DNA from: Eledone cirrhosa
Lineage: Eukaryota
NCBI GenBank assembly: GCA_964016885.1
Contig: OZ024742.1
Coordinates: 173,414,001-173,478,000 of the forward strand
Direction: 5' to 3'
Length of the DNA stretch: 64,000 nt
Numbering within the stretch: the stretch's first letter is position 1; each line of letters starts with the position of its first letter. Shown in pieces: positions 2,663-40,204 of the stretch. Under the pieces are notes generated by a model. The model had not been told where the DNA came from. It worked only from the letters and a program-made list of their open reading frames with translations, and did not search any database. Position numbers and translations under genes: made by a program.

Positions 2663-3003
2663 TGGAAAGAGATATAGATGAAGATATAGATATAGATATA
2701 CACGTATATACATATTTATAGAGGAAACCAGAAAAGGGAATCACAAAGAATAATGAAAGCATAGAAATATAGAAGGGAAGAAAGGCAATGTACAAGTAAT
2801 TTACTTTCCAAGACATTTCTTGTTATTTGTGAAAAATTAAAAGAAGGTCAGCAGGAAAATAATTGATTTCTTCAAAAACAGAATTGGATTAGAGGTTATG
2901 TTGGCAATGAGAAAAATTATGTGATTGAAGAGGAAGTAAAAGTGCACAACAACAACAACGACGACGACGGCGATGATAATAATAATAATAATGATAATAA
3001 TAA

Positions 3004-3137
3004 TTGTTTCTATATTAGGCACAAGGCCAGCAATTACCAGTACCTTACTGGTACTTTATTTTACCGACCCCGTCAGGATGAGGGGCAAAGTTAACCTCGG
3101 CGGGATTTGAACTCAGATCATAAAGGGACGTAACTCT
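3004..3137 (-). mobile_element. 5'-truncated tRNA-derived SINE with Meta-domain-like core
   Basis: Minus strand has B-box-like gagttcaaatcc and ccctcatcctgacggggtcggtaaaataaagtaccag. Flanked on both sides by (AAT)n. Related copies at 17940 and 61825. Confidence 0.8.
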
Positions 3138-3144
3138 ATAATAA

Positions 3145-3187
<43 letters not shown>

Positions 3188-5921
3188 GAGGAAACAACAG
3201 ACAAGAGAGAGCAGAGCCGTGGTGGAAGAAGCGACTGAGTGGGCAAATCGGGGAAATGAGAAATGACATAGGAAAGCTTGAGTCACTACTGAATGGGACA
3301 CTAAAAAACATAGGCACTAAAAATAGACTGGAAATAAAATACAAAACTAGGAGTAAAAAGCTAAATATTATCATAGAGGAATTGAAGCAACGCATTGTAG
3401 CAAAGAGTGCCAAAATCAGGCGATACGAGAACAGAGTCAGTCAGTATAAACAGAACCGCATGTTCGACAACAACCAGAAGATGCTGTTTGGACAGCTTGA
3501 GGGGAAAGAAAGAGGCACCGACTTGATCCCTGGGGCGGAACAAGCTAAAACATTCTGGAGAGGAATATGGGAGCAGGATGTTAGACACAATGCCCAGGCA
3601 GGGTGGATTGAGACAGTACAGAGGGAGATCGGTGAGCAGGCACAGCAACAGACTGATTTGAGTATCACAGTTGAAACTCTTAAGGGGCAAGCCAAAAAAC
3701 TAACCAACTGGAAATCACCAGGCCCAGATGGTGTGCAGGGGTATTGGATTAAACATTTAACATCCCTCCACCCGAAGCTGACGGCCATGTTCAATGACTA
3801 CTTGGTGTCGGGTGAGGTGCCAGAGTGGTTGACAAAAGGTACCACAGTTCTGATAATGAAAGACCGAATCAAGGGTAATGATGTTACCAACTATAGACCT
3901 ATCACATGTCTGCCCGTAATGTGGAAACTGTTGACGAGCATTGTGTCTGAGGAAATCTACCATCACCTCCACACAAACAACTTGTTGCCGGACGAACAGA
4001 AAGGATGCCGAAAGAAGTCACGTGGTACAAAGGACCAGTTGCTTATTGATAAGATGGTAATGGGGAATTGCAGGAGGAGACACACTGATCTTGCCATGGG
4101 ATGGATAGACTACAGAAAGGCATTTGACATGGTGCCTCATTCCTGGATCACCAAAAGCCTGGAGATCTTCAGGGTGGCAGATAACATCAGACAGTTGCTG
4201 GGCAGGAGTATGGGGTCCTGGGAGACAGAGTTGACATCAACTGGTGTATCCTTGGGAAGCGTGAAGATCAAGAGAGGTATCTTCCAGGGAGATAGCCTGT
4301 CCCCTCTGTTGTTTGTCCTTGCCCTGATGCCCTTGACCATTATGCTGCGAAAAGTGAGAGCAGGATACAAGTTGGGAAGGGGAGAGCTTACCATCAATCA
4401 CCTCCTCTTCATGGACGATCTTAAGCTCTTCGGGAAAAGTGAGAAGGAGTTGGATGTGCTTGTTGACACTGTCCGTATTTTCAGCAGTGATATATGTATG
4501 CAGTTTGGTATTGGTAAATGTGGAGTCATTGTGATGAGGAGGGGTAGGTTGAGCAGAAGTAACGGGATCCAGATACCAACAGGTGAGATGATAAAGGAAA
4601 TTGACTCTGAGGAAGGATACAAGTATTTGGGCGTTCTGGAGGCTGATGGCATAAAGAACAAAAAAATGAAGGAATTGTTAAGAACTGAATACATTCGGAG
4701 AGTAAGGAGCGTATTGAAGTCACATCTGAACAGCAGAAATGCCATAAGCGCAGTAAATTCCCGAGCTGTGTCTATTATTAGGTACAGTGCGGGAATTCTG
4801 AGATGGAATGTTGCTGAACAAAAAGAAATGGATAGGAAGACTAGGAAGCTATTGACTATCTACAACATGTTCCACAAGAGGAGTGATGTCGATAGACTCT
4901 ACCTAAGGAGATCTGAGGGTGGAAGAGGTCTTATCAGCATAGAGGACTGTGTTCAGATGGAGAAAAACAACCTATACAAATACGTGACCTATAGTAAGGA
5001 GCCAATGCTCAGAGCTGTACTGAAGGAGGGGACAGTAGGCCAGGGGATACCCAAGGAGGAAATAACATCAAGGAGGAAGAGCAGCCTTAAGGGAAAATCC
5101 CTTCATAGTACCTTCTTTGAGAAAACTGAATTTAGAGATCCACAGACATGGAACTGGTTGAGAAGAGGAGACCTCAAAAAGGCTACAGAAGGAATGCTAA
5201 TGGCTGCGCAGGAGCAGGCCCTCAAAACGAAGTGGTTGAAGCACCATATCTACAAGGAGGAGGCTAGCCCACTGTGCAGGATCTGTGGAGAGAGAGAGGA
5301 GACTGTGGCTCACATTGTGTCCGAGTGTAAACACCTAGCCCAGACCCACTATAAGGGCTGGAGACACGATGTGATGGGCAGGGTGATCCACTGGCACCTG
5401 TGCAAAGTAAACAATCTACCACATTCTGAGAAATGGTATGAGCATAGGCCAGAGGCGGTGATGGAGAACAGTCAGGTGAAGGTGCTGTGGGATTTTAGGA
5501 TACAGACGGACAAAAAACTGGAACACAATAGACCTGACCTGGTGGTTGTGGACAAAGAAAAAAGATCGTGCCTGATTGTGGATGTGGCCTGCCCGTTCGA
5601 CACGAGAGTGCAAGAGAAGGAGAGGGAGAAAATTAACCGATACCAGGACCTAAAGTGGGAGGTGAAAAGGATTTGGAACTGCCATGAAGTCAAAGTGATC
5701 CCGATTGTCATAGGCGCACTGGGGACTATCTCCAAAGGTTTCCAGGGATGGTTAAAGAAAATCGGCCCCTTCACGCTTTTTGGAACGCTTCAAAAGGCAT
5801 GCTTGCTTGGAACGGCAAGAACCCTCCGATACGTCCTGAATATCTGAGGCTGCAGGTAGTGGCTTGATATTCAATCCAACGGACTTTCCAGTTAACCAAC
5901 ATCAATGACTGAGATTCAAGG
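3188..5921 (+). mobile_element. R4/Dong-like RLE non-LTR retrotransposon, family A, 5'-truncated but uninterrupted
   Basis: (AAT)n on both flanks. About 75-nt 3'UTR shared with copies at 14410 and 26635. Confidence 0.92.
3256..5847 (+). CDS. Reverse transcriptase + CCHC + restriction-like endonuclease (863 aa; frame open from 3190)
   Basis: WKSPGPDG, NYRPITCL, IFQGDSLSP, FMDD, CRICGEREETVAHIVSEC, RHD, RPDLVVVDK...IVDVACPFD..K. The upstream in-frame EPWWKKRL motif shows it is 5'-truncated. Confidence 0.95.
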   Translation: MRNDIGKLESLLNGTLKNIGTKNRLEIKYKTRSKKLNIIIEELKQRIVAKSAKIRRYENRVSQYKQNRMFDNNQKMLFGQLEGKERGTDLIPGAEQAKTFWRGIWEQDVRHNAQAGWIETVQREIGEQAQQQTDLSITVETLKGQAKKLTNWKSPGPDGVQGYWIKHLTSLHPKLTAMFNDYLVSGEVPEWLTKGTTVLIMKDRIKGNDVTNYRPITCLPVMWKLLTSIVSEEIYHHLHTNNLLPDEQKGCRKKSRGTKDQLLIDKMVMGNCRRRHTDLAMGWIDYRKAFDMVPHSWITKSLEIFRVADNIRQLLGRSMGSWETELTSTGVSLGSVKIKRGIFQGDSLSPLLFVLALMPLTIMLRKVRAGYKLGRGELTINHLLFMDDLKLFGKSEKELDVLVDTVRIFSSDICMQFGIGKCGVIVMRRGRLSRSNGIQIPTGEMIKEIDSEEGYKYLGVLEADGIKNKKMKELLRTEYIRRVRSVLKSHLNSRNAISAVNSRAVSIIRYSAGILRWNVAEQKEMDRKTRKLLTIYNMFHKRSDVDRLYLRRSEGGRGLISIEDCVQMEKNNLYKYVTYSKEPMLRAVLKEGTVGQGIPKEEITSRRKSSLKGKSLHSTFFEKTEFRDPQTWNWLRRGDLKKATEGMLMAAQEQALKTKWLKHHIYKEEASPLCRICGEREETVAHIVSECKHLAQTHYKGWRHDVMGRVIHWHLCKVNNLPHSEKWYEHRPEAVMENSQVKVLWDFRIQTDKKLEHNRPDLVVVDKEKRSCLIVDVACPFDTRVQEKEREKINRYQDLKWEVKRIWNCHEVKVIPIVIGALGTISKGFQGWLKKIGPFTLFGTLQKACLLGTARTLRYVLNI

Positions 5922-6223
5922 AATAACAATAACAATAATAATAATAATAATAATTATTATAATAATAATGCTTTCTTTATTAACCACAAGGGTTTACATA
6001 AAGTAGACATTAAGGACAGTACAGGACAATACAGGACGGTACAAATGGGCATTTCTGCGTGTAAAAAACAAGAAACAGAGGATGTAATAATAGAACAATG
6101 AAAGAATTCCCCAATAGGGGGGAGACTTCCGAGGGACATTCGTGGAGAAAGCCCATTAAAAAGTCACAGTGACCTGACCACCAGGGCAGGTGTCCTCTCC
6201 CAGTTTTCCACCTTTAATTACAG

Positions 6224-9200
6224 ACATATACTCAGAGTAAGCCCATTCACTCGGGCCATTCTTTGCCTCTCTCACCCATCTTTCAACAAAATGCCGGGAA
6301 GAGAGCACTTCCCTCTCAACCCTGATTTTCCTTTTCAAATGAAATTTGAAAAAGTTAATAAGGGCATCACCGAAGAGGTAAATGCTCGTCTTCAGCCCTT
6401 TCAAACGTGTCCACCATGCTATCTCTTTCGCCATGGCCACCAGATAGATAAAAACTGCGTGCCCTTCCCGGCTAAAGTAAGAGGGCGAGGCAATCCCCAC
6501 GATGTACTCAGCTGAGAGCTGGATCCGTCCTACAAGCGACAGCAGGTTTCGACATAAACCCACAAGTCAGCAATGCTCGGACACTGGACGAGTGCGTGCA
6601 GGACGGTTTCGTCGCCCTGCGCGCATCTCGGACATGTCCGGCTGACGGCACCTCCATGCCTGTAGAGTTTATCCCGAACTGGCAAAGCTCCTCGGTAGCA
6701 CTGCCAGGCCAGTGATTTCTGGAAGTTGTCCATAGTTCTTCCGAAGAGATCGGCTAATTGATTTTCGTCGACGCCTAGATTTTCCCCAAGTACGTCGTCG
6801 CTCTTCCCCTCCACTAATCCTCTATAGAACGCCGAGGTGGAGTTTCCACCGATCACATTGCCAGATTGGTCGAGGGCTGTAAGCGTCTGAAGACATTCCA
6901 GTCTCCATGCGCTCCCTCTCGGTCTTCGCTTGACCCAGGGCTGCAGCTTCCTCAAGGAAACGAGCTGAGGTAAGACGCGTCTAGCAAACGGCGACCACGC
7001 CTGACCACCGTCGAGAAAGAGGTGGAGATGTCGTAGCCTGAGCGCGTGTCTGCGCATCATCATCCACGGCATGCCCATCCCTCCACGTAGCGGGTGTTGA
7101 CTGCAGATGGAACGCCTGACAATAGGAGCGCGTCCCTTCCACAAATAGCGAAAGAGCAAACGCTCCAGCGCAGTCAGGCGGGGCTTAGGACAAGGTACGA
7201 CGGTCAGGCGGTAGTAGATGACGGACACGATGTACGCGTTAGACACTTCCGCTCGACATCTTTTAGTCGATAGCTTCCTCTCCGCTCATATCTGGGTGAG
7301 AGAAGCCGCACTGCTCGTCTACTCGTCCCAGTTTTTGTCCCTCTGGAGGGGCGGACCGAACCATACCCCTAGCAATTTAACCAGTCCATCCGTCCAGCGC
7401 CCGACGACGCTGTTGGACGGCATGGACCTGCCTCTCCAGGTCCCGAGCTGCAGGCCCACTGAAATTTCCTGGTTGATAATTACTCCTGTCACCGATTCGT
7501 ATTCTCTTAGTGTAGTGCGAATCGCCTCGATATGTTTGGCGTTCGACACAACTACGGTGACATCATCCGCATATGGTGACACGGATCTTCCGCATCCTAG
7601 TTCGCAGGGGACCCCCCTCAACGTCGCCAGTTTGTGCAGTAATGGCTTGAGAGTCAATACGTACAATAGGGACGAGAGGGGACATCCGAAAGGTGACCGT
7701 TCACTCTCACCACAGAGCAGATGTCGAGTGCATGGCAGCGATCCCTCTGAAGACGGGCCCAAAGCCAGCCCCCCTCAGGACTGGCGCTAGGTAACGATAG
7801 TCGAACCTATCGAAAGCTTTCGACGGATCTAAATTGATCAAGGACCCACCCATTCCAGGTTCCCTACCTACCCTCTCCACGATGTATCGCATGAGGTGGA
7901 GGTTATCGTGGATGGATCTGTCGGGAATGGCGCATGCCTGCGCCTCTCCCACTAGACCATCAACGACAAGCGCCAACCTCTTTGCTAGCACATTGGCCTA
8001 AATGTTGTACTCTGTTTTAGCAGAGTTATGGGCCTGAAATTATCTGTTATCGCCCTTGTTCGGATCCTTTCTCAGCAGTGCCACCGCTCGTCGGTTCACA
8101 GAGCTGGAGATTCTCCCGTTCTGTTGGCAGTTGCAGTAGACGTTCGCCAAGAGGCCTCCGAACAAGTCTGGCATCTGTACGTAAAGTGCATAGGGTAGAC
8201 CATCCAAACGAGGCCATTTACCCCTTGTGCAGACAGTCATTTCCTCCCGTACTTCAGCGGCTCTTATCGGCTTTTCGCAACACTCCACCTCAGTGGCCGA
8301 GAGCCGCGGCAGTCCGTCGAGGTAGACACTAAAGTCCATCCCTCGATCCGGCCCACCGCTGCCGCCGAACAGCTGAGCGAATTGTGGCTGTAAAGCTTTA
8401 CACATTTACCCCGATCGAGTAGCATGCGCCCGTTGTGGTCCACCAAAGACACGATCGTGGCTTTGTTGTCACGATGCGCCTCCGCCACTCGGGCCCATTG
8501 AACGGCGTTCGTCCCCTCGTGTCTGAAAGCACGCGCCCGAGCTCTGCCAAGGCAGCCTTCGTGCTTTGCATTGAAGAATTGGTCAAGGGCCAATTTCGCC
8601 GCAAGTACGTCGGTCGCAATACATTTTCTAAGCGACTCGTCTAATTTTATAACTAGTCCTCTCTCTGGTCTATTTTTCTCTATTGCTAACGTCTTACTAA
8701 ACCAAATGGACTCTATTCTAATCGCTCTTTTCAGAGCTAACCTATACTTGTTGTTGACGATGGCGCCATCAACGCCCGCTTAACTAGTTCGCTAATCAGG
8801 TATCTGTAGGCCTTGCGCGCTGGTAAGGACGCGTTTAACTTCCAGCTGCGGGGTCCTCGTCTGTGAATCCTATCTAAGTCAAGCACTCAGATCACGAATT
8901 TGTGGTCCATGTAGCTGACTATCTTGAATTGTGGACGGCCTATGCTAGCTCTATCTATTTCCCTACAAAATACTCTATCTAGATATGATCTGGATGACCC
9001 GATGTGGTTTGTCCAAGTCCAAATTGCCACATTCGGGAAATCCAATCAGTACCAGTCAGACAGTTCAAAACGCCTGAGCAGGTTGGTGAGGCTCTTGCAC
9101 CCTCCTCCACTATCCGCTAATCCCACACAGTCCCAGCGTGCATCTAACATCCCGTTCCAGTCTCCCACTAACACTAAAGAGCGGGACGTTACAAGAAAGG

Positions 9201-9582
9201 TCTCCAGACGCCGGAAGAAATCAAGCCGCTCTGCTCCTGTCGGGGCATAGACGGCCACTATCCTGAAAGCTTACCCGTCTCTGCTGGTCACGTCCAGCAC
9301 CACCAACTTACCTTCTGGGAACAGGAAGATGTTCCGTATGGCGAGATCCAAACCTCTCCAAAAAAGCACAGCAACTCCTCTCCCCGATCCAGGACGGCTG
9401 GGAGATGCGTACACATCGTAGCCGCCGAATATCGGTGCGAAGGCCCGTGCTTCGGAGATTATGGTCTCGCTGATGGCCACTACATCTATGTTTAGTGACC
9501 TGAGGTTGTTGAGCAGGTGGCCCTGCTTCCATGACGACCCCAAGCCACGCGCATTTATGCCGCCTATTCTGAGTGAGGTCAT
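6224..9582 (-). pseudogene. Tx1-C ORF2 (APE-RT-CCHC), frameshifted
   Basis: ORF pieces 9271-9582, 9046-9258, 8264-8593, 8040-8405, 7707-7991, 7319-7762 and 6530-7246 are colinear with 20851-24268. Confidence 0.9.
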
Positions 9583-9616
9583 GTTGAAATGGAGTGGAAA
9601 AGATTGGAAAGACCAC

Positions 9617-11402
9617 TTACCTTACTTCTGGTAGAGGAAGGATGGTTTCTCCATTCTTTTCACTGCTTGTCGCCTCCTCCGGAAGGATGTCCTTATAAAT
9701 CCTCCTGGAGAGTGCTTGTCGGAAGTCTCCGAAGTTTTGGGGAATTTTTGTTTCAGTGTCGTGTACGTTTTCTCTTTGATGCGAGTGATTTATATGAGTC
9801 GAGGTGGTGTGAACTTTTGAAGTGTTGTGTAGTATTTTTCTGTGATGCTGGTGTTGTGTTGGATGTAGTATAATAGTTGGTTGTTGTTCAAATGTAATGC
9901 TGTGTAGTGTGTATCGTTTTGGTTGTTTTATTTTGTTTGCATTTGTTGTGGGTTTGTTTCTGTTTCGCTTGTTGGTGACTTTTGTGGTGTTGGTGATTGT
10001 GGTGTTGGGGTCAATGATTGTGATTGTGTTGGTGTTTGTAGTGATGGGGTTGGTGATGCTGGTGTGGATGGTGACAATATGTCTCCAGTGCGATACGACC
10101 TATCGCAAAATCCTCCACAGGCGTTGGTTTTGGTTGTGGCGTGGTGGATCGTGTAGGCGCTGGTGCTAGTTCTGGCACGTTGGGTGGTTGTGGTGTTGGT
10201 TTTGATACTGTTGCTGGGGCTTGAGCTGCTACAGTTGCTTCTGCTGTTGCTGCTACAGTTGTTGCTGCTATTAATGCTGCTGGTGGTGTTGATGGTTGAG
10301 TCACTGGGGTGGGTAAGAGAGGTGGCCTCAACCTTTTAGTCTGAGGGCAGAAAGCCTTTAGGTGGGTTCCTTCACCACAAACGACACACCAAAGCCTTCT
10401 ACCCTCGACGATGACGGTGAGGTGGCTGCCGTCAGTGATGTCTATTACGTCTAGGATCTCCTCAATGCTATTTTTGTCCGCTTGGATCAGGAGCTCCATC
10501 CCAGATCCCGACCAGTTCTCCTGCTTTTCTCTTGCTATTTCGATTATTTTGGTGTTGGCGTCGATGCCGGCGAGGAGAGCAGCCATTAGCCAGGGAATTT
10601 CGATGGCCGGTGGAACGTGGGTCACCCTGATCTTTACGAGTCTCTCGCCACAATAGCTTGGGACGAGTGTGAAGTCGTCGCTTCTTAATGGAGCCATGGG
10701 GTGTTCTCTGGCTTCCTGTGGTGTTTCAAAGAACACGTCCACGGTTCCATATTTCTGCCCACGTCAGATGTGGATTTTCCTTGCACACACATGCCCCAAA
10801 ACGTTTTGGATTTGGGATTCGGATGCCCGTTCCACTCGACGCGATTTTATGTTAATCGTCCGATAAGACACGGTGCATAGCCGCCGATGCTCCATTTTAT
10901 TTGGTCGGGGAGGGGGGGGGGGGGGGGGGGGGGCTGACCCTGTACCCATCTTTCTTTACCATTCTCTTGGCTTCATCTAATTCCTCCTGAGTTTGTTTCG
11001 CATTGTTGGCTTCTTTGGCAAAAGCCACGGAGTTATTCTCATTGTTGTTGTTGCTGTTGTTGTTATTGTTATTCTTAGTTTCAGTTGTGGTGGTGATGGC
11101 GTCAGTTGTGTTCGGTGTGGAGGAGTCCGTTCTGGGTGAATATATTTCGATGTCACGAGATAATTTATTTGTTTTCTTTTGTTTCTGTTGTTGCTGTGGT
11201 GGTATTGGAGGTGGCAGTTTCAACACCTGCTATCATTGCTAATGGCGGGAAATGAATGTCTGCATGAGATAAATTTAAATATTGCTACTGCTTCTATTTT
11301 TAGTGTTAGCAGACGTAGTAATATTTACAATGGTGGTGTTGTTAGAGGTGTTAGTTTGTGAGGAAGGCTCTAAGTTGCTGTTGTAGCTGTGAGTCGTCCA
11401 TG
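9617..11402 (-). pseudogene. Tx1-C ORF1 type 1 (gag-like CCHC knuckle), disrupted
   Basis: Pieces 10897-11226, 10764-10949 and 10011-10742 are homologous to the 710-aa ORF1. C-terminus TILPLPEVR*. Start uncertain. Confidence 0.8.
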
Positions 11403-11615
11403 ATTTTTTCGAAGACATTTTTTGTTTGATAATTATAAAAGTTTAAATTTTGGGCTCAAGGCCCCAATCCTTTTGAGTGTCCTTTTCAGAAAGCAATGTA
11501 TGTGGACTTCTAAACAGTTAACAATAAAAATGTTCCATAAATGGCAATTTTAAACAACTGAAAACAACAAACCTTTGCGGAGCTAACGATTATACGATTT
11601 CCTACGTAGGTCGCC

Positions 11616-11646
<31 letters not shown>

Positions 11647-13471
11647 GTATGAAGGTATGGAAAACGACACTCCTTTTGAATAGTGAAACAAAATCACTGG
11701 AAGCTGGAGAAGTTAATATTAATTGTGGAATGTTTCAGGGTGACTCTTTATCAACGCTTTTATTCTGCATCGCACTTATACCAGTAAGTAAAATGCTCAA
11801 TGAAACAAAACATGGATATAAAGTCTATGACAAAACCATTAATCACCTGTTCTACATGGATGACCTGAAACTATTTGCAAAAAATGATGAACAATTACAA
11901 GGGCTATTATCCACTGTGGAGCAGTTCAGTGATGACATTAAAATGGAGTTTGGACTAGATAAATGCGCCAAAGCAACGTTCACCAGAGAAAAGCTGCTGA
12001 AGAGTTCAGACATTAATCTTGATCGGGGGAACGTGATAAGAGAACTTGATCAAGAAAAAACTTACAAATATCTAGGTGTTTGTGAAGGAGACGGTATCAA
12101 GCACTTGACAATGAGGGAAAGGATAAGGAAGGAATGTTACCGCAGAATAAGAGCAATCTTAAGAACGGTATTGAATGCAAGGAATAGGATCGATGCCATA
12201 AACACGCTTGCCATACCAGTAGTAACCTACAGTTGCAATGTCATCAACTGGTCAAGCACAGATATCCGTAGGCTCGATACAAAAATTCGAACATTCTTAA
12301 CCATACACAGAATGCATCACCCTAAGGCAGATATAAATAGAATATATCTCCCTAGGAAAGAAGGAGGACGTGGGTTAATCCAGTTAGACATTGCGTTGAA
12401 AGCTGCAACAATTGGTTTATTTACATATCTAAGGGAATCACATGATTGGATGATCAAACTCGTTTTGAAACACGAAAGCATCAAAAGATCATATTCCATT
12501 ACAAAAGATGCACAATGATACAGTAATGGACTACAAATTTCAGAAGTCCCATTTACTGCTGAAATGGAAAACACAGAAAAAGCAAAGCAGGTAAAAGTAA
12601 CTGCAAAGAAAGAACTGCTACTGAAACTGGCTAAGAAATGGCAAGAAAAGCCTCTGTATGGAAAATTCCCAGAGCGAACTAACAATCCTGATGTTGACAA
12701 AACTTTAACCCATCAGTTGTTGGCATCCTCTGGACTGAAATCGGAGACTGAAGGACTGATTATATCAGCACAACATCAGTGTCTGCCAACAAAAATACCA
12801 AGCCAACATAATAAAAAATAGATGCAGCCCATTATGCCGTGTATGCAAAAAACAACCAGAGACCATTGACCATATAATTTCAATGTGCAGTCCTATAGCT
12901 CCAACCGAATACCTAAACAGGCATGACAGAGCTGCACAATACATTGGAAAATGTGTAAGCATTTTGACCTGAGCCATCAAAAGAATTGGTGGGACCATCA
13001 ACCACCTCCCATACTTGAAAAATATCACATCTCAATCTTGTGGAACTTTAGCATTCAAACAGGCCGAAAAATAGATGCAAACAGACCTGATTTAATATAT
13101 AAACATTTGAAAATTTGAGCAAGTATAAGGACCTGGAGATAGAAATTGGAAAGATGTGGAAATTGAGAACTAAAACAATACCAGTGGTTGTAGGCGCTCT
13201 GGGAATGATACCTATGGGGTCTATTGATTACTTGTCGCAAATCCCAGGAAACCCGCGTATAGGAGAAATACAAAAGATAGTACTAATGGGAACTGCCCAT
13301 ATACTAAGGAAGATTATGTCAATATAAGTACATCACAAGTCTAAACACTAAAGATGCATGTGTGAGTATGTATGTTCTTCCTTGAACATGGCGGACCTTG
13401 TTGTCTCTTGAGGTCACTGGTTGTGACTTGGTGATAACTCGTATGAACATAAAGCAAGATAAATGCAACTG
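11647..13471 (+). mobile_element. R4/Dong-like family B, 5'-truncated, decayed
   Basis: FQGDSLS, FYMDDLKLF, IYLPRKEGGRGL, KYKDL..IPVVVGALG. (AAT)n flanks. Confidence 0.92.
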
Positions 13472-13496
13472 TAATAATAATAATAATAATAATAAT

Positions 13497-14356
13497 GATA
13501 TATGTATGCAATTTGGTATTAGTATGTGTGGAGTCATTGTGATGAGGAGGGGTAAGTTGAGCAGAAGTAACGGAATCCAGATACCAACAGGTGAGTTGAT
13601 AAAGGAAATTGACTCTGAGGAAGGATACAAGTATTTGGGCGTTCTGGAGGCTGATGACATCAAGAACAAAAAAAAATGAAGGAATTGATAAGTACTGAAT
13701 ACCTTCGGAGAGTAAGGAGCGTATTAAAGTCACATCTGAACAGTAGGAATGCCATAAGTGCAGTAAATTCCCGCATTTTGACCTGCACCATCAAAAGAAT
13801 TGGTGGGAGCATCATCCACCTCTCACACTTGAAAAAGATCACATCTCTCAATCTTGTGGAACTTTAGCATCCAAACAGACCGAAAAATAGATGCAAACAG
13901 ACCTGATTTAATATTGAAGGACTTTAAAATGAGGGTATGCCTGCTAATTGATATGTCTGTTCCAATAGACAAGAATGTATCTATAAAAACATTTGAAAAA
14001 TTAAGCAAGTATAAGGACCTGGAGATAGATATTGGAAGAATGTGGAAATTGAGAGCTAAAACAATACCAGTGGTTGTAGGCGCTCTGGGAATGATACCTA
14101 AGGGGTCTAATGATTACTTATCGTAAATCCCAGGAAACCCGCGTATAGGAGAAATACAAAAGCTAGTACTAATGGGAACTGCCCATATACTAAGGAAGAT
14201 TCTGTCAATATAAGTACATCACAAGTCTAAACACTAAAGACGCATGTGTGAGTATGTATGTTCTTTCTTGAACATGGCGGACCTTGTTGTCTCTTGAGAT
14301 CAATGGTTGTGACTTGGTGATAACTCGTATGAACATAAAGCAAGATAAATGCAACT

Positions 14357-14357: not shown

Positions 14358-14409
<52 letters not shown>

Positions 14410-14410
<1 letters not shown>

Positions 14411-16693: not shown

Positions 16694-16923
16694 GTTATAT
16701 ACAAACAAGGTTTAAGAAGTGAAAAGAAAAAAAAAAAGGAAAAAAAAAGGAAAAAGAAAAGTGCATAATGTGGAACGTAAAAAGTCAATGTGGAAGAAAA
16801 GTTAATGTTATTTGACTGTGCTTGTAAATAACATTAACATTTCTTCCACATTGACTTTTTACGTTCCACATTATGCACGGTTTCTTTTTTCTTTTCACTT
16901 CTTAAACCTTGTTTGTATATAAC
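16694..16923. repeat. Long inverted repeat (about 100-bp arms, 12-nt loop)
   Basis: gttatatacaaacaaggtttaagaagtgaaaag...gtgcataatgtggaacgtaaaaagtcaatgtggaagaaa-gttaatgttattt pairs with its reverse complement at 16826-16923. Confidence 0.93.
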
Positions 16924-26436: not shown

Positions 26437-26634
26437 AACCCCAATAACTGGTTATTTAACCCCGAAGGGCCAAATAACGGACAGAAAGACCCCTCTCACG
26501 AGGAGGAGGGTGTCTTTATCAACAATTTGGTTCAAGTTTTAAACAATTTACAATTGTTTTAACGGTTAAAAATTACTATACCTTACAGAGCCTAGCCTCC
26601 GTCAACCATGGCATTCAATAATAATAATAATAAT

Positions 26635-27718: not shown

Positions 27719-27721
27719 AAC

Positions 27722-27784
<63 letters not shown>

Positions 27785-27786
<2 letters not shown>

Positions 27787-29980: not shown

Positions 29981-29989
29981 AATAATAAT

Positions 29990-31235
29990 GATTTCTTTAT
30001 TAACCACAAGGGTTTACATAAAGTAGACATTAAGGACAATGCAGGACAATACAGGACGGTACAAATGGGCATTTCTGCGTGTAAAAAACAAAAACAGAGT
30101 ATGTAACAAAAAAATAACAAATGAAAAATTCCCCAATAGGGTGGAGACTTCGGAGGGACATTTGTGGAGAAAGCCCAGTAAAAGGCCACAGTGACCCTGA
30201 CAACCAAGGCAAGTGCCCTCACCCAGTTTTCCACCTTTAATTTACAGACACACACTCAGAGTAGGCCCATTCACTCGGGCTATTCTTGCTTCTCTCACCC
30301 ATCTTTCAACAAAATCCTGGGAAGAGAGCACTTCCCTCTATACCCTGATTTTCCTCTTCAAATGAAATTTTAAAAAGTCAATCAGGGCATCACCGAAGAG
30401 GTAAGTGCCCGCAACACCCCTTTCAAACGTGTCCACCATACTATCTAGTTTGCCATGGCCACCAGACAGATAAAAACTGCCTGCCCTTCCCGGCTAAAGG
30501 AGGAGGGCGGGGCAATGCTCACGATGGACTCAGCTGATAGCAGGATCCGTCCTACACGCGACAGCAGATGTTCGACATGAACCCACAAGTCAGCAATTCT
30601 CGGACACTGGACGAGTGCGTGCAGGACGGTTTCGTCGCCCTGCGCGCATCTCTGACATGCCTGGCTGACGGCACCTCCATACCTGTTGAGTTTATCCCGA
30701 ACTGGCAATGCTCCTCGGTAGCACTGCCAGGCCAGAGATTTCTGGAAGTTGTCCATAGGCCTCGGCCCGAAAGTTCTTCCGAAGAGATTGGCTAGTTGAA
30801 ATTCTTCGACGCCTAGAGTTTCTCCAAGTACGTCGTCGCTCTTCCCCTCCACTAATCCTCTTTAGAACGCCGATGTGGAGTTTCCACCGATCACATTGCC
30901 CGATTGGTCGAGGGTTGTGAGCGCCTGAAGACATTCCAGTCTCCAAGCGCTCCCTCTCGGTCTTCACTTGACCCAGGACTGCAGCTCCATCAAGGAGACG
31001 ATCTGGGGAAAGACGTGTCTAGCAAGCAGACCACACCTGATCACCGTCGAGGAAGATGTGGAGATGTCGTAGCCTGATCGCGTGTCTGCGCATCATCATC
31101 CACGGCAGGCTTAGCCTTCTACGTAGCGGGTGTTGACAACAGATCGACCGCATGACTATCGGAGCGCGTCCCTTCCACAAAAAGCGAAAGAGCAAACGCT
31201 CAAGCGCAGTCAGGCGGGGCTTAGGACAAGGTACG
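29990..31235 (-). mobile_element. Tx1/L1-clade family C, short 5'-truncated copy
   Basis: Matches 20596-21847. (AAT)n flanks. Confidence 0.92.

Positions 31236-31328
<93 letters not shown>
31236..31328. repeat. Long perfect (AAT)n spacer
   Basis: Direct reading. One of about 15 AAT tracts separating elements. Confidence 0.97.
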
Positions 31329-31332
<4 letters not shown>

Positions 31333-33222
31333 TGTCATTCAGTATGAGGACATGGAGAACGACACTCCTTTTGAATAGTGAAACAAAATCACTGGAAGCT
31401 GGAGAAGTTAACATTAATTGTGGAATTTTTCAGGGTGACTCTTTATCACCGCTTTTATTCTGCATCGCACTTATACCATTAAGTAAAATGCTCAATGAAA
31501 CAAAACATGGATATAGAGTCTATGACAAAACCATTAATCACCTGTTCTACATGGATGACCTGAAACTATTTGCAAAAAATGATGAACAATTGCAAGGGCT
31601 ATTATCCACTGTGAAGCAGTTCAGTGATGACATTAAAATGGAGTTTGGACTGGATAAATGCGCCAAAGCAACGTTCACCAGAGGAAAGCTGCTGAAGAGT
31701 TCAGACATTAATCTTGATCGGGGGAACGTGATAAGAGAGCTTGATCAAGAACAAACTTACAAATATCTAGGTGTTTGTGAAGGAGACGGAATCAAGCACT
31801 CGACAATGAGGGAAAGGATAAGGAAGGAATGTTACCGCAGAGTCAGAGCAATCTTAAGAACGGAATTGAATGCAAGGAATAGGATCGATGCCATAAACAC
31901 GCTTGCCATACCAGTAGTAACCTACAGTTACAATGTCATCAACTGGTCAAGCACAGAGATCCGTAGGCTCGATACAAAAATCCGAAAATTCTTAACCATG
32001 CACAGAATGCATCACCCTAAGGCAGACATAGATAGAATATATCTCCCTAGGAAAGAAGGAGGACGTGGGTTAATCCAGTTAGACATTGCGTTGAAAACTG
32101 CAACAATTGGATTATCCACATATCTAAGGGAATCACATGATTGGATGATCAAACTCGTTTTGAAACACGAAAGCACCAAAAGATCATATTTCATTACAAA
32201 AGATGCACAAAGATACAGTAATGGACTACAAATTTCAGAAGTCCCATTTACTGCTGAAATGGAAAACACAGAAAAAGCAAAGCAGGTAAAAGTAACTGCA
32301 AAGAAAGAACTGCTACAGAAACTGGCTAAGAAATGGCAAGAAAAGCCTCTGTATGGAAAATACCCAGAGCGAACTAACAATCCTGATGTTGACAAAACTT
32401 TAACCCATCAGTGGTTGGCATCCTCTGGACTGAAATCGGAGACTGAAGGACTGATTATATCCGCACAAGATCAGTGTCTGCCAACAAAAAATTACCAAGC
32501 CAACATAATAAAAAATGGGTGCAGCCCACTATGCCGTGTATGCAAAAAACAACCAGAGACCATTGACCATATAATTTCAATGTGCAGTCCTATAGCTCCA
32601 ACCGAATACCTAAACAGGCATGACAGAGCTGCACAATACATACATTGGATAATGTGTAAGCATTTTGACCTGCCCCATCAAAAGAATTGGTGGGAGCATC
32701 AACCACCTCCCATACTTGAAAAAGATCACATCTCAATCTTGTGGAACTTTAGAATCCAAACAGACCGAAAAATAGATGCAAATAGACCTGATATAATATT
32801 GAAGGACTTTCAAAGGAGGGTATGTCTGTTCCAATAGACAAGAATGTATCTATAAAAACATTTGAAAAATTGAGCAAGTATAAGGACCTGGAGATAGAAA
32901 TTGGAAAAATGTGGAAATTGAGAACTAAAACAATACCAGTGGTTGTAGGCGCTCTGGGAATGATACCTAAGGGGTCTAACGACTACTTATCGCAAATCCC
33001 AGGAAACCCGCGTATAGGAGAAATACAAAAGATAGTACTAATGGGAACTGCCCATATACTAAGGAAGATCCTGTCAATATAAGTACATCACAAGTCTAAA
33101 CACTAAGGATGCATGTGTGAATATGTGTGTTCTTTCTTGAACATGGCGGACCTTGTTGTCTCTTGAGGTCACTGGTTGTGACTTGGTGATAACTCGTATA
33201 AACATAAAGCAAGATAAATGCA
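31329..33222 (+). mobile_element. R4/Dong-like family B, 5'-truncated, young
   Basis: Open RT-CCHC-RPD frame to 32837. One short deletion near 32824 shifts the endonuclease frame (32822-33082). Confidence 0.94.
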
Positions 33223-33241
33223 AATAATAATAATAATAATA

Positions 33242-36200
33242 AACGAGGTAAATTGTAACACTTCGAATCCCTGGGTTGGGGCGGAATCACTGACAACAGA
33301 ACAAATTAAAGAAAGGATCGAAAAACTGGAGGGAGTGCATGCTCAAGATGAAACTCAAAATGAAAACAATGAGATCGTAAATGATAAAGAAATGAATGAG
33401 AATGAACTTGCCAACTTGAAGGATGAAATTTTGATCGAATGGATGAAAATGAAAGAATCTGACACGGGGGAACGAGACACCCTCCCTAAGATCCAGAACA
33501 CCAAACAGAACCAAAAGATAATACACAAGATTAACATAATTCTCAAAAACATTATCATCACAAACAAACTAAACATTACTGATTTAAATCATCTCTATTA
33601 TGCATCGGCTAAAGTCACCACTCACTTATGTGGAGTGAAAATGAAAAAACAAAGGAATTCCCACAAGAAATCTACTTGGCAAGAGAACATCAATTGCCAA
33701 ATAAACCTTCTCCGATCTGACATATATATTTTAAACAACTATAAAGTAGGTGAACATGTTAAACAAACTAAACTTAGAAAATTGAAAAGAAAGTACAGTA
33801 TAAAATCAACAAGTGACATAGACATGCTGATAGAAATAATCAAGCAAAAAGTGTCGGCCAAAGCTGCTCGTATAAAGCGCTTTGAAAACGATCTAGATTC
33901 TATAAGGACAATAATATGTTCGAAAACAACCAAAGAAGCTTCTACAGAAAAATTGGTAAGTCAACAATAACTGCTCTATCAATACCACCCAAGGAGGAAG
34001 TGCAAGAATTCTGGGAAAAGACCAGGGCCGAAGAAAAAGTTCATAATATATATGCCCCATGCACAGGCTACAATTGAAAGATACAGCCCACCTTGAGGAA
34101 CAAATATGGGAAAATATAACAGTTGAACAGTTGCGTTTGGCTCTTAGAAAAACCAACTAATGGAAATCCCCAGGAAAAGACAAAATACAAAGTTTTTGGA
34201 TAAATGCCTTCACAGAGTCTCATGAGCTGTTAGCCCAACTTTACAATGAAATAGGTAAGGAGCCAGAAAAGATACCATCATGACTATTTAACAGCATTAC
34301 ATTCCTGCTTCCGAAGAATGATGCGACAAACAATCCCAAAAATTACAGACCGATAACTTGCATGACCACAATGTATAACATTTTAACATCAGTCCTAACT
34401 GAATATACGTATGACCACGTGATAACAAATGACCTATTTCCCATTGAGCAGAAAGGGTGTAAACAAGGCTCATATGGCTGTAAGGATCAGCTTTTGGTTA
34501 ACAAAATGATACTGGAAGATTGTCATAATAGACACAAAAATTTATCAATTGCTTGGATAGATTATAAAAAAAGCATTCGATAGTGTGGCACACAGTTGGA
34601 TTAAAAATGTTTAGAGATGTTCAAAATATCTCCCGTTGTCAGGAGGTTTTTGTCATTCAGTATGAATACATGGAAAACGACACTCCTTTTGAATAGTGAA
34701 ACAAAATCACTGGAAGCTGGAGAAGTTAATATTAATTGTGGAATTGTTCAGGGTGACTCTTTATCACCGCTTTTATTCTGCATCGCACTTATACCATTAA
34801 GTAAAATGCTCAATGAAACAAAACATGGATATAAAGTCTAATCACTTGTTCTACATGGATGACCTGAAACTATTTGTAACAAACGATGAACAATTGCAAG
34901 GGCTATTATCCACTATTATCCAGTTCAGTGATGACATTAAAACGGTGTTTGGACTAGATAAATGCGCCAAAGCAACGTTCACCTGAGGAAAGCTACTGAT
35001 AAGTTCAGACATTAATCTTGACCGGGGGGAGTGTGATAAGAGAACTTGATCAAGAGGAAACTTACAAATATCTAGGTGCTTGTGAAGGAGACGGGATCAA
35101 GCACTCGACAATGAGGGAAAGGATAAGGAAGGAATGTTACCGCAGAGTAAGAGCAATCTTAAGAACGGAATTGAATGCAAGGAATAGGATCGATGCCATA
35201 AACACGCTTGCCATACCAGTAGTAACCTACAGTTACAATGTCATCAACTGGTCAAGCACAGAGATCCGTAGGCTCGATACAAACATTCGAACATTCTTAA
35301 CCATGCACAGAATGCATCACCCTAATGCAGATACAGATAGAATATATCTCCCTAGGAAAGAAGGAGGACGTGGGTTAATCCAGTTAGATATTACGTTGAC
35401 AACTGCAACAATTGGATTATCTACATATCTAAGGGAATCACATGATTGGATGATCAAACTCGTTTTGAAACACGAAAGCATCAAAAGATTACAAAAGATG
35501 CACAAAGATACAGTAATGGACTACAAATTTCAAAAGTCCCATTTACTGCTGAAATGGAAAACACAGAAAAAGCAAAGCAGGTAAAAGTAACTGCAAAGAA
35601 AGAACTGCTACAGAAACTGGCTAAGAAATGGCAAGAAAAGCCTCTGTATGGAAAATACCCAGAACGAGCTAACAATCCTCATGTTGACAAAACTTTAACC
35701 CATCAGTGGTTGGCATCCTCTGGGCTGAAATCGGAGACTGAAGGACTGATTGTAGCAGCACGAGATCAGTGTCTGCCAACAAAAAATTACCAAGCCAACA
35801 TAATAAAAAATTGATGCAGCCCATTATGCCGTGTATGTAAAAAAAACAACCAGAGACCATTGATCATATAATTTCAGTCCTATAGCTCCAACCAAATACC
35901 TAAACAGGCATGACAGAGCTGCACAATACATACATTGGATAATGTGTAAGCATTTCGACCTGCGCCATCAAAAGAATTGGTAGGAGCATCACCCACCTCC
36001 CATACTTGAAAAAGATCACATCTCAATCTTGTGGAACTTTAGCATCCAAACAGGCCGAAAAATAGATGCAAATATACCTGATATAATACTGAAGGACTTT
36101 AAAAAGAGGGTATGCCTGCTAATTGATATGTCCGTTCCAATAGACAAGAATGTATCTATAAAAATATTTGAAAAATTGAGCAAGTATAAGGACCTGGAGA

Positions 36201-36529
36201 TAGAAATTGGAAAAAATGTGGAGATTGAGAACTAAAACAATACCAGTGGTTATAGGCGCTCTCGGAATGATACCTAAGGGGTCTAATGTTTACATATCGC
36301 AAATCCCAGGAAACCCGCGTATAGGAGAAATACAAAAGATAGTACTAATGGGAACTGCCCATATACCAAGAAAGATTCTGTCAATATATGTACATCTCAT
36401 GTCTAAACACCTAAAGATGCATGTGTGAGTATGTATGTTCTTTCTTGAACATGGCGGATCTTGTCTCTTGAGGTCACTGGTTGTGACTTGGTGATAACTC
36501 GTATGAACATTGGCAAGATAAATGCAACT
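33242..36529 (+). mobile_element. R4/Dong-like family B, longest copy, decayed
   Basis: N-terminal region (ERDTLPKI, DLNHLYYASA) plus RT and RLE fragments with many stops. Confidence 0.92.
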
Positions 36530-36549
36530 GTAATAATAATAATAATAAT

Positions 36550-36694
36550 GATATATTTATTGGCTACAATGGCTGACACAAGAAAAACATTACGGACGGT
36601 ACAGGACGGTACAGGACGGTACGATGTGGGTTTTGTGCGTGTAAAGATGTTTATGATTTATGTAAGTAACGAAAAAGAAAAAGAAAGACATAGA

Positions 36695-36739
<45 letters not shown>

Positions 36740-39700
36740 AATAAAAATGAAAAATTCAAACAATGAAAAAATACTCCAATAGTGCGGAAACCTCCGAGGG
36801 TTACTCGTGGCGAAAACCACACAAAAGACCACGTCCACCCTGACTACCAGGACAAGCGCCCTCTCTCAATTATTCCATCCCTAAAACTACAAGCGTATAT
36901 TCAGAGCGGTGCCGTTCACTCGAACCATTCTCGCTACATTCACCCACCTTTCAACAGACTTGCTAGAAGACAGCACTTGCCTCTCCACCCTGATTTTCCT
37001 GTTCAATTGAAAGCTGAAAAAGTTAATCAGGGATTCGCCGAAGAGAAAGGTATCTGTTTTAACCCTTTCAACATTGTCCACCACACAATCTCTTTCGCCA
37101 TGGCCACCAGGCAGATGAAATCTTCCTGCCATTCCTCCTCTAAGGAAGACGGAGAGACCATCTGCACAATGGACTCAGTCGATAATCGGATCGGTCCTAC
37201 ACGCGACAGCAACTGTTCGACATAGCTCCACAAGTCAGCAATGCTCGGGCACTGAACGAGGGCATGCAGGACGGTTTCGTCACTCTGCGCGCATCTAGGA
37301 TCGTCTCGGCTGATAGCACTTCCTTGCCTGTAGAGCTTATCTCGAACCGGCTACGCTCCCCGGTAGCACTGCCAGGCCAGGGACTTCTAGGAGTTATCCA
37401 TAGGCCCTAGGCTGAAAGTACTCCGGAAGAGGGCAAACATCTGATCTTCTTCGACGCCCAGGATCTCTCCGAGAACGCCGTCGCTCTTCCCCTCCACGCC
37501 AAAGTGGATGTTCCACCGATACTGGTGCCCAGCTGGCAGAGGGTGGTGAGCGCCTGGAGACATTAGAGTTTCAAAGCCCTATCCCTCACTCTTTTCCTGA
37601 CCCAGGACTGCAGTTCCGCCAAGGAGACAAGCTGTGGGAAAACATGCCTGGAGAACGGCGACTACACCTGTTCACCGTCAAGGAAGCACCAGAGATGTCG
37701 CAGCCTCAGCGAGCATGTTTGCGCATCATCAGCCATGGCATGCCTACTCCCCTACGCAACGGGTGTTGACAACAGTTGGACCGTCTAACTATTGGACCGC
37801 GTCCTTTCCACAAAAAGCCGAAGAGGAGTCGCTCTATTTTGGTGAGAGTTGAGCCTGGGCAAGGGATGGCGGTGAGGCGTTAGCAGATAACGGATGCGAT
37901 GTACGCATTCACCCCTGCGCCCGGCCTTTCAGGGACAGCTTCCTTGCGGCCCATTTCTGGTTGAGGGAGGCAACCTTGCTCGTCACATCGCTCCAGTTTT
38001 TCTCCATTTGGCGGTGGGGGCCGAACCTGACCCCGAGCAATATACCGGTTTGTCCAACACCCTACGACGCTGTCGGAATACATGGACTTGCCTCTCCAGG
38101 TGCCGAGCCGTAAGCCCACCGCCTTTACCTGGTTTATATTTGCTCCTGTCACCGCTTCGTATTCCTTGAGAGCGGTGCCAAACATCTGGACGTGTCTGGT
38201 GCTCGATAGCATCACGGAGACGTCGTCGGCGTATGCCGACTCGGATTTCCCGCATCCTAGTTCGCATGGGACGCCCCTCATCGTCCCTAGTTTGTGCTCG
38301 AGAGCCAATACGTACAAGCAGAACGCGAGGCGACCACCCTGGTGGAACGAGCGCATGATGCTGAATGGCTGCGACAGGTGACCTTTCACCCTAACAACCA
38401 AGCAGATGTCGCTGTACGTCGCAGCGATCCAACCCCTGAAAACGGGCCCGAAAGCGGCTGCTTCGAGGTACCGATAATCGGCCGAGTGTCATGTACCGTT
38501 AGTCGACCCTTGGATTGATCCAAGTTTATCAGGTCCCCAGCCGTCCAGGTTCCTTAACCACCCTCTCTACGATGTATCGCATAAGGTGGAGGTTGTCATG
38601 TATGGATCTGTCCGGAATGGCGCATATCTGCGCCTCTCCCACATGATCCTCGACGACAAGCGCCAACCTCATTTTAACACCTTGGCCAAAATCTTGAACT
38701 CTGCGTTTAGCAGAGTTATGGGCCTGAAGGTATCGATAACATCCCGCTTGATCGGGTCTTTTCTCAGCAGCGCTATCGCTCCCCGACTGACGAAACTGGG
38801 AATGCTCCCGTTCTGCTGCCAGTTGCATTAGACGTCTGCCAAGAAGTCACCTACCAAGTCTGGCATAAATGCATAAAGCTCGTAGGTCAGACCATCCAAA
38901 CCTGGCGATTTACTCCTCCTGCAGTATGTCATCGATTCCGGTATTTCACCGGCTGTTATTGGCTTTTCGCAACACTGTGCAGCGGTCGTAGAGAGCCGAG
39001 GCAGTCCGGTGAGGTATGCACTAAAATTCATACCCCTATCCGGCCTGCTGCTCCTCCCAAACAGTTCAGCAAAGTGCTGCTGAAAAGCCTCACACATCTG
39101 CTCTGGTTTGAGCAACTCGCGCCCGTTTTGATTAGTCAAAGACTGAATTGTGGCTTTGTTGCCATGTCGCGCAACTGCCACTCGGGCCTAGTGGACGGCT
39201 TTTGTCCCCTCGTGTTTCAGAGCACGCGTTCTAGCTCTGACAACGCAGCCTTCGTGTTATGCGTTGGCCGAGTGCCAATCTCGCCGCAAGCACGTCGGTT
39301 GCGATGCCTGTTTTTAAACGCCTCTTCTAGCTTTCTGACTAGCTCTCCATCTACTGTATTTTCCTCTATCTCTAGTCCTTTGCTAAACCTAATCGATTCT
39401 ACTTTAATTGCCCTTTTAATTGCCCTTTTCTACTTTAATTGCCCTCAACGTCCGCTTACCTAATACACTAATGCGGTCTCTGTAGGCTTTGCGCGCCGGG
39501 AAAGACGCGTTCAGCTTCCAGTAACCGGGTTCTTGTCTGTGAAGTCTGTCTACGTTGATCTGTGTAGTCGACTATTTTAAATTGTGGACAACTTATACTA
39601 GCCTTGGCTAGTTCTCTGCAGAATACCCTATCGAGATACGATCTGTCCATGTCCACATTGGTACATTCGGGTGATCCAGTCGATAACTGTCAGACAGTTC

Positions 39701-40204
39701 AAAACGTCTGAGCAGGCTGGTAAGGCTTTTGCACCCTCCTCCCCTATCCACAATCCCATCGTGCATCCAAGATACCGTTCTAGTCGCCCACTAACTCTAA
39801 AGAGCGGGACGTTCCAAGAAAGGTCTCGAGATGTCTAAAGAAATCTGGCCGTCCTGCCCCAGGTGAGCCGTAGACGTCTACTAGCCTGAAAGCATTGCCT
39901 TCGCTGCTGGTCACGTCCAGCACCCCCGACTTACATTCTGGGTTCAGGAAGATGGCCGGTATGGCGAGATTGAAGCCTCTCCGAAAAAGGACGGCAAAGC
40001 CTCCCCCGATCCTGGACGGCTGGGAGATGCGGTTACGTCATAGCCGCCGAAGATCGGTGCGAAGGTTCGTGCTTCGGAGATTCTGGTCACGTTGATGTCC
40101 ACCACATCTATGTTTAGTTACCTGAGGTCGTTGAACATGTGACCCTGCATCCAAGATGACCTCAGGCCACGTACGTTTATACTGCCTATTCTAAGTACGG
40201 CCAT
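36550..40204 (-). mobile_element. Tx1/L1-clade family E, entire ORF2 span, decayed, no ORF1
   Basis: Begins at ATG GCC GTA CTT AGA ATA GGC (MAVLRIG, equivalent to MTSLRIG). KSPGLDG and YADD present. Own 3'UTR ending in (TTA)n on the minus strand. Confidence 0.9.

Follow-up and report, generated by a model that had tools for sequence, protein, structure and literature searches.

An AAT/ATT microsatellite occupied in opposite orientations by two retrotransposon lineages in the genome of Eledone cirrhosa

The stretch of 64,000 nucleotides from the Eledone cirrhosa assembly GCA_964016885.1 which was analysed here (contig OZ024742.1, positions 173,414,001 to 173,478,000, forward strand, hereafter called the window) carries an array of long interspersed nuclear elements (LINEs) of five families, A to E, most of which meet at (AAT)n tracts. 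Families A and B, with a restriction-like endonuclease (RLE), lie on one strand, and families C, D and E, of the apurinic/apyrimidinic endonuclease (APE) group, lie on the other. The locus thus raises the question of whether the repeat is the insertion target of both lineages or the 3' tail which they leave behind, and of what fixes their orientation. The repeat is the target, not merely a tail: both ends of both lineages adjoin it, the sense strand reading AAT for A/B and ATT for C/D/E, and the copies cluster into mixed arrays. The system is real, genome-wide and, at the level of sequence, well supported.

The repeat at the ends of both lineages

In the exact genome-wide count, ATTATT stands immediately before 1,621 of the 1,648 full-length C 5' ends, in a single phase, and (ATT)5 precedes 1,562 of the 1,648 heads. 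The repeat was in the ATT sense at all 30 C loci inspected. Of A/B heads, 1,141 were counted genome-wide, 681 of them with AATAAT within 0-2 nt upstream, which is a strict pattern; all 30 A/B heads inspected stood behind AAT-type sequence (one of them a degenerate GATAAT run), and those missed by the strict pattern had a few additional nucleotides between the AAT-type tract and the head. The pattern of opposite polarity (TTATTATTA within 12 nt) gave nine overlapping matches at only four A/B heads, all four being AAT tracts with an inverted ATT stretch at the end. A fold-back arrangement of this kind, (AAT)n followed by (ATT)m and the head, was seen at the RLE 5' junctions L381, L385, L386 and L389 and may be the trace of a snap-back during synthesis at the second strand.

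The 5' flank of a 5'-truncated element cannot be supplied by its own RNA. Such ends adjoined AAT in the expected sense in 67 of 89 truncated RLE copies, and ATT in the expected sense in 17 of 29 truncated APE copies, against a background of 0.27 % of positions passing per polarity in 20 stretches of the genome, each 10 kb long and placed at round coordinates. Thirteen rows had been removed from this table, since a tandem unit of the 5' untranslated region (UTR) had caused full-length A heads to be taken for truncated ones; apart from the ends lacking a repeat, which are discussed below, the remaining rows were one ATT and one both-sense case. None of the ten ends of five control elements in the window (inverted repeats and the Penelope-like region) had an AAT/ATT flank. 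Another unit of these families lay across the tract at 83 of 118 seed ends, and no upstream neighbour of these families was present at 8 of 29 heads of C and 8 of 30 of A/B, which still stood behind a repeat-type flank.

Polarity was surveyed at tracts of at least four units in loci L001-L240 and the window, the adjoining element end being recorded. The rule that RLE elements read AAT and the APE group, together with an associated short interspersed nuclear element (SINE), reads ATT was kept by 536 of 538 tract-adjacent ends (240/240 5' ends and 296/298 3' ends); the two exceptions were an A copy whose 5' piece was inverted and a SINE with a degenerate tail. Since the surveyed loci were seeded by element ends, young families are over-represented. 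Among the 20 round-coordinate stretches, a small sample of 200 kb, polarised arrays were present in two, these LINEs made up 11.9 of the 200 kb, and 10 of 18 AAT/ATT tracts adjoined these elements (10 of 11 at a length of at least 18 bp). The proposals of the initial annotation that AAT is more than a 3' tail and that orientation is non-random thus hold in dispersed copies across the genome.

Clustering was assessed with 100 C and 89 A/B heads in the first 129 Mb of contig C1 (a contig, not the window unit of that name), pairs at most 15 kb apart being counted against a uniform null, which ignores regional density of transposable elements. C-C pairs were on the same strand in 29 cases and on opposite strands in 2 (1.15 expected in total), A/B-A/B pairs in 12 and 0 (0.91 expected), and C-A/B pairs were on opposite strands in 13 cases and on the same strand in 3 (2.07 expected). 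Mixed arrays with varying order of units were found at many loci, and runs of C at a spacing of about 6.05 kb were common.

The window lies in a genome of 3.0 Gb, and its array was annotated by self-comparison, tblastn and alignment to intact natural copies. Between 2973 and 40233 there are 14 LINE units, as had been estimated from a first inspection, eight of RLE type (four A, four B), each on the + strand, and six of APE type (three C, two D, one E), each on the - strand. Two SINEs, both on the - strand, were missing from the earlier list; the 16 units cover 34,469 of the 37,261 bp. The polarised units stand as first described, but they form two blocks with about 2.2 kb of other DNA between them (15.7-17.9 kb) rather than a single array. 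Of the AAT/ATT tracts of at least three units in 2973-40204, 23 of 24 read AAT on the + strand. The statement that nearly every junction is (AAT)n was also borne out, 15 of the 18 unit boundaries being clean AAT tracts, one degenerate (15672-15695) and two non-AAT, namely 13773, where an A fragment is joined to the 3' end of a B, and about 40233, where E has its 5' end against a hairpin. The features are as follows.

2976-3002 (+): AAT tract, left edge, on the 3' side of SINE1
3003-3137 (-): SINE1, 5'-truncated, 3' end resembling the C/D tail
3138-3186 (+): AAT tract with the 5' ends of SINE1 and A1 on either side
3187-5921 (+): A1, RLE LINE, 5'-truncated, 99 % identical to an intact copy
3190-5847 (+): open frame of A1, 885 aa, with reverse transcriptase (RT), CCHC and PD..D motifs
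5922-5969 (+): AAT tract, A1 and C1 tail-to-tail
5970-11615 (-): C1, APE LINE, two ends present, open reading frames (ORFs) broken; C-type 3' part and differing 5' half
11616-11645 (+): AAT tract, C1 and B1 head-to-head
11646-13468 (+): B1, RLE LINE, 5'-truncated, minor internal deletion near 13097
13472-13495 (+): AAT tract
13496-13772 (+): A2, internal A fragment, joined to B2 without AAT
13773-14354 (+): B2, B 3' fragment
14358-14408 (+): AAT tract
14409-15671 (+): A3, 5'-truncated, tail degenerate
15696-17891 (no strand): gap filled by other DNA, containing two AAT tracts without these families and a 230-bp inverted repeat at 16694-16923
17892-17934 (+): AAT/AAC tract on the 3' side of SINE2
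17935-18119 (-): SINE2, about 185 bp
18120-18134 (+): AAT tract
18135-20542 (-): D1, APE-group LINE, 5'-truncated, internal deletion near 18906
20543-20595 (+): AAT tract between the D1 5' end and the C2 tail
20596-26616 (-): C2, full-length APE LINE, 98 % identical to an intact copy
24304-26451 (-): ORF1 frame of C2 with a CX2CX4HX4C knuckle
from 24268 (-): ORF2 of C2 (APE, RT, zf-RVT) with stops and a frameshift
26617-26634 (+): six AAT units, C2 and A4 head-to-head
26635-27721 (+): A4, 5'-truncated
27722-27783 (+): AAT tract, A4 and D2 tail-to-tail
27784-29980 (-): D2, 5'-truncated
29981-29989 (+): three AAT units
29990-31235 (-): C3, 5'-truncated
31236-31330 (+): 31 AAT units, C3 and B3 head-to-head
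31331-33222 (+): B3, 5'-truncated, 99 % identical to an intact copy
33223-33240 (+): six AAT units
33241-36527 (+): B4, 5'-truncated, 94 % identical to an intact copy
36531-36548 (+): six AAT units, B4 and E tail-to-tail
36549-40233 (-): E, APE LINE, 5' end cut slightly upstream of ORF2, against a hairpin, non-AAT

Four tracts (3138-3186, 11616-11645, 26617-26634 and 31236-31330) separate two 5' ends, so that the tail of neither element can be their source. Only C1 and C2 extend to the 5' end. The copies of A, B and C are 90-99 % identical to intact copies, a spread which points to insertions of differing age. The fusion of A2 to B2 would have arisen by a template switch or a deletion. No RNA run was among the sequencing runs listed as containing the sequence; contigs from four sequencing runs cover C2 in part and carry no information on its flanks or expression.

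Identity of the two lineages

A and B each have a single ORF, which in intact copies elsewhere encodes 1,141 aa (A) and 1,216 aa (B), matches the Pfam domain RVT_1 and shares 36 % amino acid identity between the two. CCHC and PD-(D/E)xK restriction-like endonuclease motifs are present in the C-terminal part, where C952/C955/H964/C969, R981-H982-D983, P1038-D1039, D1054, K1070 and Y1074 are kept at 90 % or more in 73 A-like proteins. The closest matches in sequence (phmmer, residues 449-1162) and fold (top Foldseek matches) are R2 proteins. Unlike in R2 and NeSL, the N-terminal 300-350 aa of both A and B contained no CCHH zinc finger. An AlphaFold model (mean predicted local distance difference test score 86) has an N-terminal helical domain, predicted with confidence at residues 58-128; W56, W86 and W111 are conserved, and a whole-protein search gave no Pfam Myb match. 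In their single ORF, RT, CCHC and PD..D motifs and lack of a CCHH finger, A and B fit the R4/Dong architecture, to which a divergent N-terminal Myb/SANT-like domain also belongs (PMC7998251). The name Dong is applied to A and B on the grounds of predicted architecture and target, rather than of a tree with named references.

The 5' heads of A and B are related over about 360 nt, with approximately 70-90 % identity (L110:231-590, L106:4775-5135), which, beside the 36 % identity of the proteins, suggests exchange of the 5' UTR between lineages. The 5' UTR of A contains a unit of about 320 bp in one or two copies. A candidate additional AAT-associated family was rejected, as it proved to be the A/B 5' UTR. 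A DNA search with the 3' end of A gave no matches, which is no measure of its rarity, since very common words are skipped in such a search. Searches for a hepatitis delta virus (HDV)-like ribozyme in the A, B and C heads gave only chance matches in Rfam, and none with a custom descriptor used without a positive control.

C has an ORF1 with a CX2CX4HX4C knuckle, identified by direct reading in the lack of a Pfam match, and an ORF2 with the order APE-RT-zf-RVT (Pfam Exo_endo_phos, RVT_1 and zf-RVT). A gag-like CCHC knuckle in ORF1 is typical of Tx1 elements. The top match of C ORF2 among solved structures is human L1 ORF2p (E 2e-52, vs 1e-21 for R2), and the catalytic motifs of the APE are in place and align with the L1 endonuclease (EN). 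Intact copies occur elsewhere (L102, L109, L262). Domain, motif and structure matches thus agree with the initial annotation that two unrelated endonuclease classes, RLE and APE, are involved. An APE had been placed at about 23500-24268, and C2 does carry one, but a stop codon interrupts the window copy.

A quick RT tree, with rows that include no named Tx1, Kibi or Koshi elements, unites C, D, an E-like copy and P0121 in a single clade (support 100), to which P0122-P0125 are sister (97); the label Tx1 for C/D/E accordingly denotes likeness of architecture and target, as distinct from placement in a tree with named references. Protein searches and cluster look-ups for these elements yielded no named element, the clusters being generic RT/APE ones only. 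The ATT-flank pattern was absent from 80 metagenome relatives, mostly of 23-38 % identity, in which an AAT tract occurred in 3 and an ATT tract of at least four units in 0.

The C1 type is a mosaic subfamily, in which the C-type 3' part is combined with another 5' half, ORF1 and a head of its own, which also stands after ATT (window 5970-11615; L243, L252, L277). A distant L1-group relative on a metagenome contig starts with (TC)n, like Kibi (L309:1-115); TC runs just upstream of ORF2 in L344 and L375 are probably internal. An RTE-like element, recognised by protein reading (L246, reverse strand 5380-7812), ends in (TG)n and not in AAT/ATT, and some other family may thus use another microsatellite.

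Probable nick positions, RNA tails and growth of the arrays

The SINE has the polarity of C/D/E, and an alignment of its last ~20 bases to the tails of C and D1 has a score reached by none of 300 shuffles. For other tails the shuffles reaching the score of the SINE 3' end numbered 1 (C1), 6 (D2) and 38 (E) of 300; the A and B tails did not match (252 and 275 of 300 shuffles as good). ARAGORN found no tRNA within the SINE. Following the APE polarity as it does, the SINE is likely to be mobilised by the C/D/E machinery.

Target-site duplications (TSDs) are readable for the SINE because it often inserts outside pure repeats. They were found in 26 of 79 copies, vs 36 of 1,500 mismatched pairs, were mostly 9-21 nt long and began with ATTAT or ATTA, often after C or T. 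As a TSD starts at the priming nick under the geometry that target-primed reverse transcription (TPRT) follows, these starts suggest an APE nick in the AAT strand, lying 3' of AAT and typically at 5'-AATAAT^R. A second cut would follow about 9-21 bp into the ATT strand. For C itself, 65 heads were preceded by exactly six perfect ATT units in 10 cases, by exactly five in 0 and by four or fewer in 11, the last class being enriched by eight exceptions fetched on purpose; this sharp onset at six units is consistent with an 18-bp duplication. Such an offset would leave repeat on both sides of each insertion. Apart from the SINE, TSDs were seen mainly on a few truncated C copies. The RLE priming nick is deduced, from orientation and TPRT geometry alone, to be on the ATT strand.

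The probable mechanism combines these points. A/B (RLE, Dong/R4-like) and C/D/E (APE, L1/Tx1-group) would insert at (AAT)n/(ATT)n in opposite fixed orientations by means of two strand-specific endonucleases, with priming nicks on different strands. Transcripts likely continue into the flanking repeat; C carries AATAAA about 6 nt ahead of it. The tail of such a read-through RNA can pair with the nicked strand, reinforcing polarity as a helper, and duplication together with the tail would regenerate the target on both sides. Each insertion would thereby split one tract into two and lengthen it, the lineages would feed each other targets, and arrays would grow by insertion, with occasional tandem duplication helping.

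Several observations weigh against this scheme. Among truncated copies, the tested interval at the 5' end held no repeat in 21 of 89 RLE and 11 of 29 APE cases, D being the loosest family (8/15 truncated D 5' ends); inversions, internal breaks and short duplications are among the misses, as are some D copies that seem to lie off target. TSDs on the RLE side were found in 7 of 113 copies vs 41 of 1,500 controls (2.7 %). A few of the 26 SINE matches extend into the adjacent SINE and are not true TSDs, and 5 of 9 matches on Tx1-type LINEs run into the head of the next tandem C. The APE side is not limited to microsatellites, as two or fewer ATT units follow the tail in 41 of 79 SINE copies; at least eight follow it in 68 of 105 C copies, and the short SINE tails beside the long C tails suggest that the minimal APE site is short, down to ATTAT(T), and that the LINEs favour or build long tracts. 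Finally, three tandem full-length C copies (L002-L004, contig C28, ~122.87-122.89 Mb) show 100 % identity over the 3.3 kb compared, in which the tract is included; this points to recent tandem duplication, or an assembly artefact, adding to arrays, rather than to independent insertion.

Among the five tandem-head matches, only L118 also duplicates an interrupted repeat. Here the interrupted ATT tract stands on both sides of a full-length C, and the upstream copy, at ~36 bp, is longer than the TSDs of the SINE, which may mean that the RNA carries some 5' repeat.

RNA-DNA pairing might instead be the main determinant of polarity and targeting, loose AT-rich nicking occurring on either strand and only those nicks being extended that pair with an (AAU)n or (AUU)n tail. 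This alternative is considered unlikely, although it accounts for the repeat terminating both lineages and for SINE sites as short as ATTAT; the RNA of SART1Bm has also been proposed to anneal to the nicked telomeric target (PMC7265360), and tail interruptions without an upstream match in L288 suggest that the RNA carries flanking repeat. The single-phase, fixed junction in 98 % of C heads nevertheless points to a defined cut, as do the C/T preference ahead of the SINE TSDs and the sharp onset at six units. Moreover, a swap of the EN domain switches specificity in TRAS/SART (PMC7265360), and the RTE copy of the same genome ends in (TG)n. Endonuclease strand choice and RNA-tail pairing can act jointly.

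It is much less probable that the mixed arrays arose mainly by tandem duplication or unequal crossing-over, not by repeated insertion into regenerated targets. The identical copies on contig C28, two further tandem C pairs of 99.4-99.9 % identity and the frequent ~6.05-kb runs would be explained in this way, but the window units are unlike in family, truncation point and divergence, self-comparison found no repeated block within the array, and mixed arrays occur in differing orders at many loci. That AAT is merely a 3' tail, the 5' flanks being neighbours' tails or chance, is scarcely credible: many 5' flanks are indeed the tail of a neighbour, but so frequent a landing on such tails is targeting in itself, the head-to-head tracts, the heads without an upstream neighbour and the background of 0.27 % speak against it, and, unless there are assembly artefacts, the genome-wide C counts and the 536/538 polarity refute it.

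With two strand-specific endonucleases as the preferred mechanism, a broader interpretation is somewhat more likely than not: that an L1/Tx1-group lineage specific to (ATT)n, hitherto undescribed, has come by convergence to use the target of Dong from the other strand, that the two lineages and the SINE feed each other, each insertion doubling the target of the other lineage, that most long AAT microsatellites are sinks for them and that several percent of the 3-Gb genome consists of their polarised mixed arrays. The interpretation of the initial annotation is supported, with the amendments that the window is part of a genome-wide system and not a special locus, and that duplication also contributes.

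Known systems and neighbouring elements

R1 (APE) and R2 (RLE) both exploit 28S rDNA, at two different unique sites and in the same orientation, and the target is not multiplied. They are thus likewise an APE and an RLE element at one repeated locus, unlike the present pair in that insertion adds no target. HERO elements are of RLE type, and ATT/AAT is probably among their targets. Some HERO families target microsatellites (PMC4640811).

Insertion of Dong into (TAA)n is established, including in molluscs (PMC3812793, PMC7998251). Dong elements of the R4 clade, known from B. mori, A. gambiae, B. glabrata and D. stevensoni, share with A and B the TAA target and its polarity, and a B. mori Dong primer runs from TAA repeats straight into an element starting with G, in the polarity and phase of the commonest A/B junction (PMC3774820). 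Dong has an HDV-like ribozyme, which the descriptor without positive control did not find in A/B; unlike Dong, A and B are two Dong-like lineages with a related 5' head, and they co-occupy their tracts with an APE lineage.

The microsatellite targets named for the Tx1 clade in the accessible text are TC, TTC, TTCC and TTTC, further targets being given in a figure and supplements (PMC4494074). Kibi on (TC)n, Koshi on (TTC)n and the crocodilian families on (TTCC)n and (TTTC)n resemble the elements described here in the APE-RT-CCHC ORF2, the CCHC knuckle in ORF1 and the microsatellite target, and SINEU, carried by Tx1-Mar, is similarly a SINE with the target and 3' end of its LINE (PMC4494074, PMC3812793). 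Unlike these named families, C/D/E have an (ATT)n target and share tracts with an RLE lineage. TRAS and SART of B. mori also occupy one simple repeat, (TTAGG)n, as two families in arrays and in opposite orientations determined by the EN (PMC7265360, PMC10088271). Both, however, are APE elements of the R1 clade confined to telomeres, whereas the present lineages have unrelated nuclease folds and use a dispersed non-functional microsatellite on many chromosomes.

Dong-R4 and L1-Tx1 are reported to be expanded or active in octopus (PMC13282606, PMC8967140); their target sites are not given in the accessible parts of either paper, 'target' having no matches in PMC13282606. A literature search found no ATT-targeting Tx1-type family and no co-targeting of a microsatellite by RLE and APE elements, although Repbase and most subscription papers, which lay outside the search, may record one. 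The Dong-on-TAA half of the system is thus known; apparently undescribed are the APE lineage in ATT sense, the SINE associated with it and the polarised co-occupation.

If the reading is true, nature would here provide two unrelated nucleases, an AP-type and a restriction-like one, which act on opposite strands of a single three-base repeat. As intact, near-identical young copies of both exist, the parts of endonuclease and RNA-target pairing in target choice would be directly testable by swaps. The system would also show a specific way in which genomes may expand and microsatellites arise. For an octopus host, it would explain the landing sites of the active Dong-R4 and L1-Tx1 families of O. 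vulgaris and would point to the probable LINE partner of an abundant SINE. Caution would then be needed with AAT microsatellite markers, which in genomes of this kind would often lie between retroelements.

Elsewhere in the window, short inverted-repeat (hairpin) elements are located at 16694-16923 and 40224-40497, the latter truncating E. An ORF of 832 aa at 42751-45246 (+), which appears Penelope-like by eye and has no Pfam match, lies in the region 41756-46782 and is flanked by inverted repeats (41756-41960/42543-42747 and 41920-42525/46177-46782, 100 % identical). Degraded relatives of this region are present at 53035-56717.

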